A stretch of DNA of 49,923 nt from Perkinsus olseni (Eukaryota). Position numbers and translations under genes: made by a program. The DNA is taken from NCBI GenBank assembly GCA_013115125.1, contig JABANN010000036.1:62001-111923 (forward strand), in the 5' to 3' direction. Below, one piece after another: positions 17,858 to 26,733 of the stretch; positions within the stretch are counted from its first letter, which is position 1, and each line of letters starts with the position of its first letter. Under the pieces are notes generated by a model. It was not told where the DNA came from. It saw only the letters and a list, made by a program, of their open reading frames with translations, and did no database searches.

Positions 17858-18370
17858 CCCGAGGTGTCGACCGCTGCTGCTACTGCTGCTACTGCCGTGT
17901 GGTGGCATACTGGGGAAAGGCGGACAAGACAACCCTAGTAGTCACGCGCGGATAATGGAGGCATACTGGCATACCCGAAAGCTCACGATCAACATCTACG
18001 GGCCAGCCACAGTGTCGGAACGAAAACGCACCAGCGTGGCCGCTGGACGTTACGGAAGAGTGGCTAAAATGTTGAACTGTGCTCTGATGATCAGATGGCG
18101 ACTGATCAATGAAGATTTCCAAAACCAGGAGACGACTGCTCCTCGCGAAAACGGAGACCAACGCGGTGAAGTACGAGCCAGAGCCGTAAGGCAACGACCC
18201 ACACATTCTACAGCCTCAACAACCAGCCTGCATGGACAATAGGGAACAAACGCTGAATGCAACAGCAACAACCGCAGTGAGTGCAGGAAGAAACCATACA
18301 CAATGAGAGAAACGTCGCGGGTTGCTGTTGTTGGTACGTAGTAGCGGTGAATTGAGACGACACCACAGGC

Positions 18371-21300
18371 TCACGAGCTGCGGAATGCTCGGCTGCCCAT
18401 GACGCTGAGCAGGACCTGACGAGCACAGGGAGGTCCCCAACAGGGACCGAAAGCTATCCTACTCTGTTCGCCAATGTGTCCTCCATCTCGAATTCATCAT
18501 CATCGTAATCGGGCTCGTCCCAGTGATTGGTCGAGGAGTCACCAGCCACCAGCGTAGCGGGAGGCAGCAGAGGGATGGAGCTGTCGTAACTGAAGCATAG
18601 ATAGGCTCGAGGGTGGGGAGAACAAGATGGTTCCGTGGACAGAAAATCCTATAAAAATGAGAACAGAAAAATGACGTCTGTCGTGACTCAATAAGCGAGG
18701 CATTCAGTATCACCATCACGTATACACGAGAAATATATATGAGATTAACCATTAAAAAACAGCCAGTCCAACGGTCCTGACTACTAGGAGTCTCCTAGTA
18801 GTCAGGACCGGTGGACCTGAAGTCTCCTAGTAGGAGATAACCCCGATCAATACAAAAGCGACAGCATCGCTCTCGGCTACTTACAGTTCATCCTCATCAA
18901 CGGATGTCAACCTCTGTCGCTTCGGTGACGGCTCCTCCAGGCTTGATTCCCGTCGCGAACGGGGAACATCAGGCACGTGACGGGGGTGGAAGGCGGGCGA
19001 GGGCCTAACAGAAAGGAACATACGACGAGACACTCCAGCACCACAGGGTCCCTCGACAAGTGGCCGGTAAGGGAGAAGGCAGACTGTGGTGGGCGAATGC
19101 ACATGTGGAGTCCGATGCATGAGGAAAGCCTTACTCGATAAGGGAAAACAGCAGTTTGTGTCGAGAGACGTGGCGAATGTACCATGTACAGCACGATGAA
19201 AGCATCATGTGCAGTCGATCGACGAGCGAGAAAGCAAGTTCGCCTTGCCAAGTCATGCAGCAGTCTGGTCACTTACGTCACAACAATGGCCGGCCGGTCA
19301 TGCCCTTCCCTTCCCGAACCGTGATCCTGAGGAGAGAGTCGAGATACGGAACCGACACGGTAGGGATTGTCGTACTGCACTAGCCGGTGGATGCAAGGTG
19401 TTAGCGAAGCCCGCCTTCCGAAGTCGCGGCATGGCAACCCTCGCATGAGGATTATAGGTAATCTCCTCGTCTGTAGCGCTCGACGAGTATCCACCTGAAA
19501 AAGGGTTATTCTATTCTCTCCGATATGCAGTCAGCCCACCGTGTTCAATCTCCCCCGCCAGACTGATCTCGGAAGCGTCGGATGCCCCCGAGGCTGCGTC
19601 ATCATCAGCATCACTCGACACTGGATCCTTCCACATGAAAGTGAGCAGCTCCTCAGCCGCCTTCTCCTTGGGCAGGCCCAGAGCTCCAGCGGGCAGCATG
19701 TCCAATACGGCAGTTTTCACGGTCTCATCTTCAACCTCGGGTACGTCACTCCAGTCTCGATAGATCTCCGTGATGAAGCCTTGGGAGTGTCGAAGGTTGT
19801 AGGGTTCGAACGGATAGACCGGCTGAAGTCGCTGCGCCAAGTTGATCGATCCAGGAGCCACCGGCATCGAGCTTCGACGTTGGGCCATGACCTTCCTCTC
19901 GAACTCCTTCCAATTGAGATTCTGAAAGTTGAACTCGCTGGCCTCCCTGAAACAGAATAAATTTCAAACAGGAAACTTCCACCTGGCCGAGCCTTACGGA
20001 TCTGGGCTGGGAGGCACACCGTCTACTGGCTGACCACGATTCATCGAGGCATACTGATGGGCCAGAGCTTCCATAATGAGGACCCCTAGGGGCTGTGCGC
20101 TTGGGACCGTCGCCTGTATAACTAATGTGCCGGCTGGGTTACAGAAGTGCGGCTCACCACTGTCCTTGCCAGTTGCTGGAGCAACGGGGGCGCCACGAAA
20201 TCGAGGAGTTTGGGCTGAACCGACAAGGTGTAGACCAGGGACTTGTGGGACTCCTTGTCAAAGATGCCGTCCAAAAAGTCGGAACCTGCTGGATCACAAA
20301 ATCTTTCCTGTGCGCAAGATATCTATCTACACTCACCCCCTTCCGACGCCCAGGCCTGCAGCTTCCAGCAAAGCATGTAACATATCTGACCAACAATGGC
20401 GATCCGAATGAAGGTCAGGCGGGCGACCCATCCCCTACGCTCTGGACGACCACTACGATGAGGACGCAGGTGTCGAAGTTGAGCGGCTCCTCTTGTTGCT
20501 GGACGAACTCCAACCTGAACATCCACAAGAACGAGTCACACGGGGGCCCAACCGACCGTGGAATAACCACAACGGTTGCCAGCATTCAGCCACCTACATG
20601 AACTTAAGAGTCTGTTGACTGTACGAGCCTGGAAGGAATGTCGCCCGACAGCAGAAGTTGCCAAGATACTCGCCGCACCTGTCATAGACTGGCATAGCGC
20701 AGGCATCAGAGTGGTCGAAACGTACAAGCGCCGTCTAAAGTCATCTCGCATGCTGCCGTTAGCACCCTCCAGATGCGGTCGCTTGTCCTCATTTCGAAGG
20801 CTCACGGAGCGAGTTTCGGTAGGGCTGGATGCTTCTTGGGTCGGGACCTCCTCTTCCCCATCCTCGGTAGTCTCGCCATAGAGCCTCTTGAGGAGTATGC
20901 AAATAAAAGCTTCAGCATACTTGATATGCAGAGAGGAGACGTAGTAACTGAGGACCACGGGGAGGTGCTGCTGCTGCTGCACTGTAGCAAGAAGGCACAA
21001 CCAAGAGACTTGGTCCAAGACCGCTCAGTATTCGACAACTCTCCACTTACTACTACGGACTGCTCCAAGAGTAGACTCTGATCGATTCTGTGGCATCTAT
21101 CTACATGCACTGTTCGTGCGAGTGCTCCCACACACAGGTCAGTAGTCAGGACGCGGGCGCAAGAAGGCAGCTGTCGCTTGCAGCGAGAATAATAATGCTT
21201 CATACCGACCCTTCCCCAAATCACCGCCGGCTTCCCTCGCCTTACGCCAAATACTGGACATATTTCGTCTTGTGCGTCCTCAACACCACATCCTCGAAGT

Positions 21301-23799
21301 GCCCAAGTACGTATGATACCAGCCGGTTGTCTTCGCCACTCGGCAGCTCTCCAGCCGCTGCATCCCCGCCGGACACGCTCAAGGTGTCCCGGAAAAACCT
21401 AGGAAAAAGCAACCGGCATTCACGGAGCTTCGCAGCCCTCTTGGGCGCGCACACCGAGATGTCGACAAAATAACCCCATTCTTCATCGCATCACCGTTGG
21501 CTTTTGTACCATCGACGTAGTCCACCTGCGCCTCAGAGTATTCCAACTTTCCGAGTTCAGGCAATGAGTTAAACAATACCGGCTGTACGAGTGCCAACAC
21601 ACGACCCTCCTCCCTGTATCTGCCGGAGGACCTACCGGAAGCACTCAGTCATGAGTGCATCAAGACGCTGGGCCATGAGGTCCATGTCCTCCTCCGAACG
21701 AGGGTTATCAGCCGCTACACAAGGAGCGGCATGCTTCAGCTACGTCTTTACAGCAGCAACTTGGGCTTACCCTCGGTGAATGCGATATCGCCGTCGCTGT
21801 CGGTCTGGGTCTCGAGGTCCATCTCACAGAGCCGCTCGAACAGGGCAGTCAGGATCTACAAAGGGACGACCCTTCGTTGATTTTCCAGCGATTGCAGCTG
21901 GCGCGAAGAAGCCTCCATACGGATCGGATAGAACAGCACGGTGCATCCGCGCCTACTGTCACAGTACCACGTGACACTACCACAGTGGATATCAGCAAGG
22001 ACTTCTACGCACTGAGGAGATGATCAAACCCCTCGTGCATCGCTCTACTCATCGCTAGGGGATCACGCATGAGTCGGAACTTGATGCAGTTGGTCGGCTG
22101 TGGCAGATTTTCATAATTGCGGATAGGAGATCGAGTTCAAACGAGAGGCTTCGTTAAATCCGTAAGATCGTCGTCATTACATTCTTATGTATCAAGTGCG
22201 GCCTCTTGGCCTTCTTGCACACCTTGAAGCAAAACCGAGTGTACCTTAGAGAACCTTACATCAACAGATTCCAACCCCTCCAGACGGCAACTCACATCCT
22301 CAGCGTATCCAGCGGTTTCATCCTGAACGGCATCTTCTTGGCAACAAGCTGACCCATGTTGATCTCGACTCGGGGTACTGAGGATCCCGCAACCTCTACC
22401 AGGCAGTCGGTGATGAGGTCCAAAGCCTCGGTGGTCGGCAGGGGAAACTGAGCCGAGCAGAATCAGAGAGATACTCCAAGGACGATAGTCACTGCGAGCA
22501 CTGTCCTCATGGGAGCGATGGACTCACCTGCTGAACGCACTGCACGTAGGAGAAGTCCTCAGCCGACATGTCGGACTTCCACTGGACGAAGAACGATCGA
22601 CAGTCGTGGTCCTCTGAGAAGGAAAGGAGCGCGTCGTCGCTACAAGAATGCAGTCGGTCCGCAATCAGACTATCCAGACCGGTTCCCGACGCTCGCAGCC
22701 GCGTCGAGGATGCCTTAGGAGGACAGAGTGGCTATCCCGGACCGACAATTCAATTTGAAATATGTGCCATGTTCGAGTAAAGCGTGAATGATATCGCCAC
22801 TGGGATTCGAACCTCCCCCAGCCCGTCCTCTCCCATTACCATTGTAGCCCACAAAGACCACGTTAACAGCGTCCACGACTTCCTGTAGCTCCAAGGGCTC
22901 CCCTCGCGGTGGCTCCCCCAAATGATTGGTAATTTTACGAGGGTGATACCGCAAGAGCTGCAGCATGATATTCTGGTCATCATCAGACAACAGTTCGTTG
23001 ACATCATATTCTTTCAGCATCTGTCGGCAGCGGGCACGGACCTGATCGGCGGCTCAATCAGATTCGCCTTGGTTGTCCACTAGACGCTCCCTCTCGAGTT
23101 CTCAGGAAGCTGTCAGAAGGTCAGGAGAGGTCTGTTCAGCGCCCTCAGTGATTCAGCCTAAGGCCATCAGCCACTTCCTCTATTCAGTATCCACTACTCC
23201 GGAGAATCGGTGCGGATCGAAACCCGCGCGCATTACCGCAGCCAAATCGGGAAAGGTTGCCTTCCCCAGCACCACTCGAACCTTCGCCGTCCTCTTAGCG
23301 CTACCCTCGACAGTAGGATCCACCAATAGGATAGCTTCATTGATCAACGCTGCTATCACCTAGTGAAGGGAGGGGCAGTCGAGGGGCCATCTGCTGCTAG
23401 GAAAAAGGGACTACGTCTGTAGCGTGCTGGATGCCGACCGAGGCCCCCGCCACCAACAGGTCCTTCAGAAGCTGTCTATTTCGGGCACCAATCGTTGCCC
23501 TGAACCGAGTCTTGATCAGAGGAATCTTATGAGAGCGGCTCACGATGGTGACAGCCAGGGGAACTGCGTTATGAGGGTCTTCAAGACCTCCTTGCTTCCC
23601 CGTTGCACAGCGCCCTTCACTTTACCGCTCGACAGGACCTGCCGTAACACTACCACAGGACGACGAGGACCGCTACAACTACCTTCTCCAAATCGAATGG
23701 GCCCGCCTGGTCGTTCGACAGCGCCTCGAAGATATCCTCCAGCTCCGATACGGCCGAGGCGGCAGCAGCTGTTGCCGAAGAGCTCCGACGAGCGTCCAT
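18371..23799 (-). CDS. RRN3: RNA polymerase I initiation factor RRN3/TIF-IA with an internal DCL (DUF3223)-like domain
   Basis: KKMPFRMKPLDTL (RRN3 EKFPF..K), FEDVVLRTHKTKYVQYL (F...LLPTH....VQF) and YPFEPYNLRHSQGFITEIYRDW (FPFDP..L..S..FI..IY..W). The last two exons (18371-18589) splice in frame. Start at 23799 is inferred. Confidence 0.82.
18766..18816. repeat. Near-perfect palindrome (19-bp perfect arms, 1-nt loop, extendable to 25 bp) inside the 295-nt RRN3 intron 18590-18884
   Basis: cggtcctgactactaggag-t-ctcctagtagtcaggaccg at 18772-18810, flanked by gtcca/tggac; a second small hairpin tctccta-g-taggaga lies at 18823-18837. Confidence 0.9.
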
Positions 23800-24039
23800 T
23801 AGGAAACAAAAAGGCTGCATTGATGATACCAACCCTTCTTGACTACCGACAAGCCCACCACTTCCGAGGTGCTCGCCCGAAGCGATTGAAAGCGAGCCTT
23901 CTCCCGACGGCCTCCCTTACAAACCAACTGCTGCAGTATCCCAAGGCTGCCCCACTCGAACTCAATAGGACCATGACGGTTGTTGCGAGGTTGCCCTTCG
24001 CTGTTACATCTCCACATGCTGACACTCAGCTTGCACACT

Positions 24040-24750
24040 AGGCAAGCATAACAACAAGAACAACTGACGCTACGCCGATCATGCCGAACCATCGCTACCA
24101 CACTTCCTCTTAATCTTATCGAACGAAGCCTGAGGAGTTGAAATCTGCCCAAATTCGCCAATGCTAGGCGACGGACTACCTCGAGTTGCTGGTAGATCTG
24201 CGAGGTCGGGATTGATGCGTACTGGTCCCCACGGTGGAACTTGTTGTAAACGTCGTTGCAGCCATGGGCATCCTCAACGCCTAAAGAAAGAGACTCATCT
24301 TCGACTGCGGTAATTCTATTAATATTGCCATTACGTAGTAGGTATTCCTTCATCACAGAATATCCCTCGACGCCCGCCATGCGCACAGCACGATTACCGC
24401 ACTTCATAGTAACGCCCTCATAGACACCATCGCCAACTCTATTGAAAACAACATGAACGCCAAAGACCTCGGCATAGCACGAGTCTTCGTTAGCCTGAGC
24501 CGGAAGGATAAGAGGAATTCTAAATGGCTACTGTTCACCCTAGGAGCAGCTTCGGCTTCGAGTATCTTGTGTGACCCCTCGGGCCTTCTAACGTTGAGTC
24601 CGCCGTAAGAATAGCAGCCACCAACGAATAGACTGATGATAATGAAAAGGCCAATTGCGGAGCTTCCGGCAACGCCCTTGAGCTTTCACCTTATCATGGC
24701 CATGCTGATGTAAATCAGCAAAGTTACGGTACGAGGTCTGGTGATGGTCA
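24040..24750 (-). CDS. Hypothetical protein, exon structure unresolved
   Basis: Open reading ANEDSCYAEVFGVHVVFNRVGDGVYEGVTMKCGNRAV... preceded by short GT-AG introns; no recognisable family. Confidence 0.4.
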
Positions 24751-25178: not shown

Positions 25179-26733
25179 TCAACTGGCGCCCCCAGCGGCA
25201 GCTAGTAACTTCTGAACTTCCTCATCATACCGTTGGTATTCCTCATCGGTCATTTGGTCCTGCAGATCGTCTCTTTCCCGCACCACTGAGAGTTTATAAC
25301 GGACCCCGGCCACCGTGACCATGACATCCGCCTTATGCGACGCGGGCTCCTCCTTCAACTCAGCCTTCATGGGCCGCTGAGCCATAACCTCCTGAGCGCC
25401 GGGCAGGCGGGTGACGTCGAAGTGCTTCAACTTCTCCGCCTCCCTCGCAAGCTCCTGTCGCTTCACCCGCTCGAAGGCTTCCTTATCGAAGGTGTCCTCT
25501 GCCGGCCGTTTCTTGACCTGGTCCTTGTTGTGGTTTACTATAGAATCCAGTTCGATCTTAGTTGTAGTAGACTCAGCATTGAGCCAGCTGGGAGCTGCTA
25601 CTGCAGTCTTGCCGAACGATGACGACTGGTTGGGCGAAGGCACGTTGGCCTGCGGCTTCCACTCTCCAGCGTTCCCAAAGATCTCCTGTACTCCACTACT
25701 GACACTAGGCCCGCCGTTCGCGTTGTTTTCCATGGCCGCCTCTTCCTTTGCCCGTTCAGCCCGTATCTTCTCTAGCATAGTTTTCTTTACAACCATTGGT
25801 CGTGGTACATACATTCCTCTAAGAGAACAGAAAGCCCTCGCAAGGCGGGTTCAACCAGGCCACACCCACAACTACCTGCATAGTTCCAGTCTTCGCTCGA
25901 GGCCCGACAGCTGTTGCGTTGCCCGTAGGATCTTGCTTTCCACTTCGGCCTTCTTGTCCTTATTATTGGTAGCAGTGAGCTCTCGATCACAGATATCGCA
26001 ATGGAACAGCCCATCCGCCCCAACCAAGGATATGGCCCGCAGGGTATCGAACACACGATTGCACTCTAAGAAAGGCATTCATGATCGGCTACTCTAAGGC
26101 GCCAACATCAACCCCGAGGAAAGGGATCTTGTTCCAGAGTATTACTATCGCAGTTGAACTCCTCCGCCATTTGCCACCGCGCCAGCTGTTCCTGCAGCTG
26201 CCGCCGCACTTGCTGCAGTCGATAGATGGACGAACAGATGACGTTAGGGGAGAGTCGGTACCAGTTCATAGAGCTGCCAGGCTTGGCATGCCGAGAGGAC
26301 TCGCCCTGACCCACTATGACTAATAACAGTAGAGATCAATATATTGGGCCACTTCACCTGAGGGTTTTCCATCTCTACTACATGGTCCCGGCAGAGGGAG
26401 GCGTCGAGCGCTCCGCGGACTTGCTTGACAGCCAGGTTCAATCCCTGAGACCGGCCAGTTCATCCGAGTGTGGGGATCGGTATATTACCTCTGCTATTTG
26501 CTGGTCCGGATATGCCACGTTATGGTTGTGCAAAAGAAACATCACAACCATGTTCTCGACATCACCGTAGAACATGCCGCACAAACACTCTGAGAGTTGC
26601 TAATGGAGTGGTACGACGAAGACTGATGAACCTTCTTACCAACAGCATCCTTGAAAAGGGCTGGATTGAAGGGTGAGAATCCAGGCGGAGCTTTCAAGGA
26701 CCCTGGTACCGAAACATAGTACTTGTCCGACAT
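25179..26733 (-). CDS. GTF2E1: Transcription initiation factor TFIIE alpha subunit
   Basis: N-terminal winged-helix region (MFYGDVENMVV..., LNLAVKQVRGAL), zinc ribbon FNC..CNRVFDTL...LFHCDICDREL and C-terminal domain VMVTVAGVRYKLSVV...QMTDEEYQRY. Confidence 0.88.

Follow-up and report, generated by a model that had tools for sequence, protein, structure and literature searches.

A DeCL/DUF3223 domain lies within the HEAT solenoid of the RNA polymerase I factor RRN3 in Perkinsus and dinoflagellates

We analysed a 49,923-nucleotide (nt) stretch of the Perkinsus olseni genome (assembly GCA_013115125.1, contig JABANN010000036.1, positions 62,001 to 111,923; hereafter the window, numbered from its first letter), whose minus strand carries a gene for the RNA polymerase I (Pol I) transcription factor RRN3 with a DeCL/DUF3223 domain inside it. 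An earlier note, made from the letters of the window, had recognized DCL/DUF3223 peptides here followed by an RRN3-like exon, and both lie where it put them: the domain is encoded by the end of exon 4 and by exons 5 and 6, and exon 7 is RRN3-like. We are nearly certain that the locus holds one spliced RRN3 gene in which a complete, folded DeCL domain has been inserted into the HEAT solenoid. The coordinates of the gene and its features are collected in Table 1.

The contigs of four public sequencing runs (two recorded as RNA; at least three studies) were aligned to window positions 18300-24100, and between them they join all the exons, which bears out the single spliced transcript over 23799-18371 that had been proposed. 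These limits are exactly the ATG, at 23799, and the end of the stop codon, at 18371, of a single open reading frame (ORF) of 926 codons in the RNA-supported model. Every intron is skipped by contigs, and the skipped pieces read GT..AG along the gene (CT..AC on the plus strand). One contig of an RNA-recorded run (run X3, record 14; 2895 nt) covers the whole spliced product from window position 18300 to 23816; it carries the pieces 22840-23039 and 22294-22447 together with all later exons, and joins exons 5, 6 and 7. Contigs of runs X2, X3 and X13 contain exon 5 unbroken, and the joint between exons 6 and 7 (22447 to 22528) is present in X1, X3 and X13.

We derived the exon model from the listed joints, together with the coordinates of the contig records, with the cuts shifted within their stated ambiguity to GT..AG ends; 15 of the 22 joints are shown directly, and the other seven follow from record arithmetic, splice-site rules and reading frame. 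The length of the model mRNA over 18300-23816, 2869 nt, is identical to that of the window-aligned part of the X3 contig (its positions 18 to 2886), an agreement that provides an independent check of the model. Exons 5 and 6 together measure 288 nt and have their outer borders between codons (22528-23041), such that skipping them would delete amino acids (aa) 141-236 in frame; no joint skipping them is among the 15 of 22 that are shown.

Both boundaries on the 5' side of the gene are defined. At 23816 the X3 contig has nine loose letters; their reverse complement, read with the genomic AG, equals the last 11 nt of PmaSL1, the Perkinsus spliced-leader sequence given in PMC3101222. Thus, the RRN3-DeCL mRNA is trans-spliced, 15-17 nt upstream of its ATG. 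Further upstream, run X1 shows a loose poly-T end before 23980, which marks the poly-A site of another minus-strand gene; this site and the spliced-leader acceptor fix the two boundaries. Between the DeCL exons and the RRN3 exons there is no separating gene boundary.

The translated exon 5 ORF matches two public proteins, P0002 from P. olseni (909 aa), which bears the name 'DNA independent RNA polymerase I transcription factor', and P0001 from P. chesapeaki (977 aa). The spliced product of the window shares 900 of 909 aligned residues with P0002. Seventeen residues (aa 177-193) that are present in the window product and in P0001 are omitted from P0002. As RNA contigs keep exon 5 whole and the P. 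chesapeaki protein keeps this loop, the public P. olseni model seems to miscall a false 51-nt intron within the DeCL exon.

Residues 125-236 are a true DeCL/DUF3223 domain by Pfam, by profile search of the PDB and by predicted fold, as the earlier note had proposed from motifs. Against the curated Pfam cut-offs (21 bits for DUF3223, PF11523, which has 75 positions; 25 bits for RRN3, PF05327), the exon 5 ORF covers DUF3223 positions 1-32 (E 6.9e-4, 20.5 bits) and the exon 6 ORF positions 51-75 (E 8.1e-3, 17.1 bits); each half falls slightly below the cut-off because an intron splits the domain. The full 75 positions are matched above the cut-off in P0002 (42.5 bits, E 9.8e-11) and in P0001 (31.9 bits). 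A profile of 24 family members compared with the PDB found the plant polymerase subunits NRPD1 (5.3e-15) and NRPE1 (1.7e-14 and 6.3e-12) and the bacterial DUF3223 structure 2K0M (4.6e-12). The motifs RYHP, SFFVQW and EDFSYVQCV of the window align with the family motifs HP, CFF and DFSY.KC; in the middle motif, rCFfv.r.DG, the first Cys and the Arg-Asp-Gly are altered in Perkinsus and kept in dinoflagellate relatives.

Structure prediction, also suggested in the earlier note, gives a folded DeCL that matches 2K0M. An AlphaFold2 model of P0002, computed from a 143-row alignment, reached a predicted template modelling score (pTM) of 0.78, and its DeCL part has an alpha/beta fold with the highest predicted local distance difference test (pLDDT) values of the protein, 86-97 in most 10-residue blocks. 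With VIA-align the model superposed on 2K0M at Z 12.3 (102 of 104 residues aligned; root-mean-square deviation (rmsd) 3.7), and in the ranking 2K0M came immediately after the Rrn3 chains, ahead of every generic HEAT protein. For P0042, a 231-aa relative modelled at a pLDDT of 92.1, 2K0M was the sole Foldseek match at E <= 0.001 (E 1.1e-5, target TM-score 0.75, rmsd 1.9). The solved Pol IV/V chains were matched by sequence and not by the fold searches, from which we draw no conclusion. Between the window protein and its P. chesapeaki counterpart the DeCL is 83% identical (93/112), compared with 79% for the core, 72% for the N-terminal helices and 75% for the tail. Judged by these identities, the domain is conserved at least as well as the RRN3 core, and very probably it is functional here and under selection.

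The rest of the protein is RRN3. PF05327 scores 101.9 bits on P0002 and 97.6 bits on P0001, both above the cut-off, and two ORFs of the window taken alone reach 26 bits (19511-19963) and 17.8 bits (21242-21490). The P0002 model aligned with yeast Rrn3 (5n5y_O) at Z 28.9 and rmsd 4.1 over 445 of 473 residues, spanning model residues 3..689 and yeast chain residues 61..616, and with human RRN3 (7oba_O) at Z 27.8.

The DeCL is a real insertion within RRN3, with helices on both sides, and not an N-terminal fusion, because RRN3's own helices precede it. The Pfam RRN3 match begins at position ~127-156 in DeCL-bearing proteins, right after the DeCL, compared with 6-10 in ordinary RRN3. Compared by hhalign with 57 canonical RRN3 sequences, the region upstream of the DeCL gave a probability of 92.3% (E 5.4e-7), and the match falls on the collinear canonical helices bearing a W...LVSA...Lv..f pattern. 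A hidden Markov model (HMM) of the N-terminal region matched seven DeCL-less RRN3 proteins in our first set and 11 in the enlarged set, and these matches always end 16-33 residues before the core. The gap between helices and core has a median of 105 aa (97-133) in 48 DeCL-bearing proteins and of 21 aa (16-33) in 11 DeCL-less ones. The placement of the domain inside RRN3, with RRN3 helices upstream and downstream, was therefore correctly read by the earlier note; the claim that the insertion falls near the acidic loop was not, as that loop lies ~80 residues and two repeats downstream of it.

More precisely, the domain takes the place of the linker at yeast Rrn3 residues ~164-173, which joins the second helix of HEAT repeat 3 to the first of repeat 4. 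This site follows from the PDB profile alignment, in which the helix after the DeCL begins at yeast residue 174 (human RRN3 residue 189), and from an upstream stretch, weak and non-significant (score -2.2), that covers yeast 94-163. The weak stretch reproduces the published numbering of the serine-patch doublets 101/102, 109/110 and 145/146, and puts 185/186 in the following turn. The serine patch, which faces the A43 stalk of Pol I, is listed for yeast as S101/102, S109/110, S145/146 and S185/186 (PMC9705513), and the H2-H4 region, which contains the insertion site, is described as forming interface I with that stalk (PMC4947163). Since the serine doublets sit in within-repeat turns and the insertion in a between-repeat linker, we infer that the DeCL projects from the edge of the solenoid opposite the serine-patch turns. 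The equivalents of S145/S146 look to be A/G in Perkinsus and are SS, SA or SC in many relatives, and an SS pair adjoins the S185/186 position.

A survey for the same architecture, another proposal of the earlier note, found it in Perkinsus species and in dinoflagellates. Searched with phmmer against 1.84 billion representative proteins, P0002 gave 194 matches at E <= 0.001; among the best 150 of them, all full-length matches ranking above P0024, the first ordinary RRN3, align in one stretch across DeCL and core. A Pfam scan of 49 of these 150, picked by the location of their best stretch, found both domains in 29, RRN3 only in 10 and DUF3223 only in 10, two of the last being Rpb1-type fragments. 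A second search, with the dinoflagellate-like P0010, returned 58 proteins, 31 with both Pfam domains and 24 that are distant ordinary RRN3; three close matches have RRN3 only, but they are cut at the N-terminus and were not judged. Our own HMMs detected both parts in 34 of 151 proteins, and in 56 of 199 once the P0010 matches were added. A profile search of a word-indexed database, whose candidate list was saturated, recovered at least the two Perkinsus proteins. Named proteins with both domains include those of Ceratium (MMETSP1074) and Effrenium voratum and a 'symbB' Symbiodiniaceae model. The range of the architecture is thus at least perkinsids and dinoflagellates: it is not private to Perkinsus, and it is widespread in dinoflagellates.

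A maximum-likelihood tree was computed from RRN3 core columns only (132 rows, 394 columns; 28 rows with too short an N-terminus dropped). All 51 DeCL-bearing rows fall on one side of a single branch (Shimodaira-Hasegawa-like approximate likelihood ratio test (SH-aLRT) 97) and the 81 DeCL-less rows on the other, a distribution that takes one change. Within the DeCL-bearing clade, Perkinsus adjoins a 39-row set containing the named dinoflagellates, and there are three deeper groups; the deep DeCL-bearing subclades comprise P0008, P0032/P0038, P0040/P0081/P0096/P0140, P0052/P0059 and P0013. As far as the core sequences tell, the DeCL insertion has a single origin and has been retained in a clade with Perkinsus and dinoflagellates. 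The Cryptosporidium RRN3, listed at 882 aa in PMC9705513, matches no sequence in our set and settles nothing in this respect.

Table 1. Features of the RRN3-DeCL gene in the window, all on the minus strand
Feature	Position	Strand	Details	Basis
RRN3-DeCL coding region	18371..23799	minus	23 exons, 22 GT-AG introns, 926 aa	RNA contig joints, frame check
5' untranslated region, beginning at the spliced-leader acceptor	23800..23816	minus		AG at 23816-23815; loose end of X3 contig
N-terminal RRN3 HEAT helices before the insertion	23330..23602	minus	aa 52-109, exons 2-4	hhalign, N-terminal HMM, structural alignment
Exon 4	23237-23359	minus	its end encodes the DeCL start	
DeCL start, 3' end of exon 4	23237..23284	minus	aa 125-140	Model strands at residues 128-130 and 133-135
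Intron 4, within the DeCL coding region	23042..23236	minus	195 nt	RNA contigs, exon model
Exon 5	22840..23041	minus	DeCL aa 141-207, including RYHP motif	Pfam DUF3223 positions 1-32
Perkinsus-specific loop, exon 5	22883-22933	minus	17 aa, aa 177-193	RNA contigs, P0001
Intron 5, within the DeCL coding region	22614..22839	minus	226 nt	RNA contigs, exon model
Exon 6	22528..22613	minus	DeCL aa 208-236, SFFVQW...EDFSYVQCV motif	Pfam DUF3223 positions 51-75
Exon 7, first RRN3 core helices after the insertion	22296..22447	minus	aa 237-286	PDB profile alignment
RRN3 acidic loop, exons 9-10	21683..21828	minus	aa 318-347	Alignment to yeast/human acidic insert
Conserved C-terminal RRN3 motif YPFEPY...	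19760..19822	minus		Pfam RRN3 positions 520-557, ORF 19511-19963, E 4.3e-6, 26 bits

Some further features of the locus and of the family were observed. In the acidic-loop region, the pLDDT of the P0002 model is low around residues 310-320. The tail of proteins in the DeCL-bearing clade carries a conserved PSPAF.P motif and a short terminal acidic helix, both absent from ordinary RRN3, and is otherwise disordered (residues 830-909 of P0002; exons 21-23 of the window, 18374-19004, minus strand). Intron 21, of 295 nt, contains a near-perfect 25-nt inverted repeat (18766-18816; 96% complementary, 1 nt between the arms). A segment of ~36 nt in intron 20 (19163-19198) is the sole match of several X1 and X3 contigs that have unrelated sequence on both sides, and looks like a short repeated element common to other loci or transcripts. 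The upstream minus-strand gene has its poly-A site at ~23980, only ~165 nt before the RRN3 spliced-leader acceptor (interval 23817-23980), and its last ORF (23799-24527) has no Pfam match. Beyond it, the minus-strand ORF 25179-25850 scores 23.3 bits (E 8.6e-5; cut-off 22) for the C-terminal TFIIE alpha domain, PF11521, which points to a second transcription-factor gene two genes upstream of RRN3-DeCL. Elsewhere in the representative library, P0105 (545 aa) carries four tandem DUF3223 domains (325.6 bits, four stretches).

Several other explanations of this architecture have to be weighed. That the locus consists of two genes head to tail, a small one for DCL and one for RRN3, joined by annotation or assembly alone, is exceedingly improbable. 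Contigs by themselves are no proof of a single molecule, and some public models of the family are over-merged (P0032 at 2273 aa, P0038 at 3087 aa, and P0170 with tetratricopeptide repeat (TPR) domains), but the spliced leader occurs only at the far 5' end, one frame stays open through both parts, RRN3 helices stand upstream of the DeCL, and the joint between exons 6 and 7 recurs in three runs. The same order is also found in 29 of the 49 scanned representatives and in 31 of the 58 matches to the dinoflagellate query, many of them from transcriptomes. A swap, in which the DeCL and an unrelated helical leader replaced the first ~130 residues of RRN3, is very unlikely. It is favoured by the late start of the Pfam match and by phmmer searches of the PDB, which yield only the non-significant N-terminal stretch; it sits poorly with the hhalign match to the collinear part of canonical RRN3, with the seven and then 11 DeCL-less proteins that the N-terminal HMM recognizes just ahead of the core, and with a structural alignment that begins at model residue 3 and chain residue 61. 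Even the weak stretch still lands on yeast 94-163 and its serine doublets. Nor does the DeCL look like a decaying passenger without present function, which we consider highly improbable: its scores in Perkinsus (31.9-42.5 bits) are lower than in most relatives, which reach up to 70 bits, and it carries the extra 17-aa loop, but its identity between two Perkinsus species exceeds that of the RRN3 core, all 51 judged members of the clade retain it, and its core motifs are intact in the part of the model with the highest pLDDT.

Another alternative accepts the architecture and gives the domain a different job, in which it would serve mainly for protein contacts or regulation instead of binding RNA. 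Its contacts might be with Pol I, or with promoter factors that take the place of the core factor, or it might gate stalk binding instead of serine-patch phosphorylation. We hold this to be unlikely. DeCL domains are reported to bind proteins too (AtDomino with La1, PMC12972900; NRPE1 with RRP6L1, bioRxiv 10.1101/111831), and loss of the Pol V DeCL to mimic loss of recruitment factors (bioRxiv 10.1101/111831); a table in PMC9705513 gives the SL1/core-factor subunits, except TBP, as not found in Cryptosporidium; and the S145/146 equivalents are not serines in Perkinsus. Conversely, the sole biochemistry on an isolated DUF3223, as described in PMC12972900, shows RNA binding, and the alignment suggests that the insertion point is at the solenoid edge that faces away from the serine patch. 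The reading of a single-origin insertion into a working RRN3 has its own weak places. The N-terminal match is moderate (hhalign 92%; HMM E-values 2e-7 to 3e-4 in the 151-protein set), and the tree comes from a 'quick' LG+G4 search with long-branch warnings for P0052, P0059 and P0013. The Pfam, PDB and fold tests were made on stand-ins, P0002, which lacks the 17-aa loop, and the relative P0042. The opposite-edge placement was read from the helix and turn pattern of the alignment and not from coordinates, and with A/G at the S145/S146 positions the stalk interface may differ in Perkinsus.

Compared with canonical RRN3/TIF-IA (yeast 3TJ1, 5G5L and 5N5Y; human 7OBA), the Perkinsus protein has the same HEAT solenoid from the N-terminal repeats to the FPFDPY-type motif, with VIA-align Z values of 26-29 over 430-450 residues in addition to its PF05327 score. 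It differs in carrying a folded DeCL of ~100 residues where the linker of canonical RRN3 from repeat 3 to repeat 4 measures 16-33 residues, in a first ~130 profile positions that have diverged beyond the reach of Pfam, and in a long disordered C-terminal tail ending in a short conserved helix. Plant Pol IV and Pol V contain the same domain family in NRPD1 and NRPE1 (profile matches 5e-15 to 6e-12), and there, as in RRN3, it is attached to a nuclear RNA polymerase machine of many subunits; in plants it sits on the tail of the catalytic subunit, whereas here it is inserted in a detachable Pol I initiation factor. We take these acquisitions, in plants and in Dinozoa, to be independent. Genuine La proteins of alveolates with a C-terminal DUF3223, such as Tetrahymena Mlp1, place the same domain on a factor of nascent transcripts (PMC7928011, PMC9705548); unlike the RRN3 insertion, the domain is C-terminal there, its partner is a La motif and the transcripts are those of Pol III. 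Plant DCL/DOMINO1 proteins and bacterial 2K0M share fold and motifs (HP, CFF, DFSY.KC) with the RRN3 domain but are single-domain or tail-domain proteins, in contrast to an insertion in a HEAT solenoid.

The earlier note knew of no described RRN3-DCL fusion. Our literature searches agree, as they found no paper combining RRN3 with DUF3223, DeCL or Perkinsus; yet the domain pair stands already in public automatic annotation, where precomputed matches assign both PF11523 and PF05327 to P0002 of P. olseni and P0001 of P. chesapeaki. What is new is thus the recognition and placement of the pair. The accounts of DUF3223 distribution in PMC7928011 (2020) and PMC12972900 (2026) name only plant DCL, Pol IV/V, alveolate or ciliate La and bacteria, and RRN3 is mentioned in neither; supplements (for example Figure S1 of PMC7928011) may list more.

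We consider it likely, taking all parts together, that a DeCL inserted once in the Pol I factor RRN3 serves there as an accessory binding module. By analogy with DeCL domains elsewhere, this module on the initiation factor would bind RNA or protein. RRN3-DeCL would still act as a Pol I initiation factor, binding the A43 stalk through its N-terminal repeats, while short linkers would hold the DeCL rigidly on the solenoid edge opposite the serine-patch turns. So placed, the domain would give the Pol I-RRN3 complex a further surface for binding RNA and/or protein, on which nascent or regulatory RNA could be held or to which a promoter or RNA-processing factor could be recruited; Pol V with RRP6L1, DOMINO1 and ciliate La would be the models for such recruitment. 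More narrowly, and on balance doubtfully, the DeCL may act by binding RNA or an RNA-processing partner at the ribosomal DNA. As the earlier note had suggested, the insertion may couple Pol I initiation to pre-rRNA processing.

The functions reported for other DeCL domains are consistent with such a role. In Arabidopsis, the DUF3223 of AtDomino is described as binding RNA at nanomolar affinity, as well as La1 (PMC12972900), and in Tetrahymena, Mlp1 without its DUF3223 nearly loses tRNA-mediated suppression (PMC9705548). The DeCL of NRPE1 is reported to be dispensable in vitro but needed in vivo for Pol V transcripts and methylation, and to interact with the exonuclease RRP6L1 (bioRxiv 10.1101/111831). 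Plant DCL-type proteins have been linked to the processing of rRNA and the assembly of ribosomes (PMC7928011).

These parallels invite a wider conjecture, quite unlikely as we judge it, in which DeCL would be a recurrent, polymerase-tethered RNA-handling module: with Pol IV/V in plants, with La and Pol III transcripts in alveolates, and with RRN3 and Pol I in perkinsids, dinoflagellates and perhaps all alveolates. If this is true, the DeCL of RRN3 would capture the emerging 5' external transcribed spacer (5' ETS) or recruit an Rrp6-type exonuclease or another processing factor at initiation; alternatively, it would make up for core-factor contacts that are missing. In such a scheme, a major eukaryotic lineage would have Pol I initiation physically linked to the early handling of pre-rRNA.

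To our knowledge, work on RRN3 in every system so far has regarded it as a simple HEAT protein with a single fold. With a folded DeCL in its stalk-binding half, apparently fixed throughout perkinsid and dinoflagellate history, the core machinery of Pol I initiation has changed across a whole lineage. The range of DeCL grows as well, by a third independent tie to a nuclear RNA polymerase system, which offers a new setting in which the role of the domain can be tested. The insertion also endows an essential factor with a feature specific to the parasite and the dinoflagellates.

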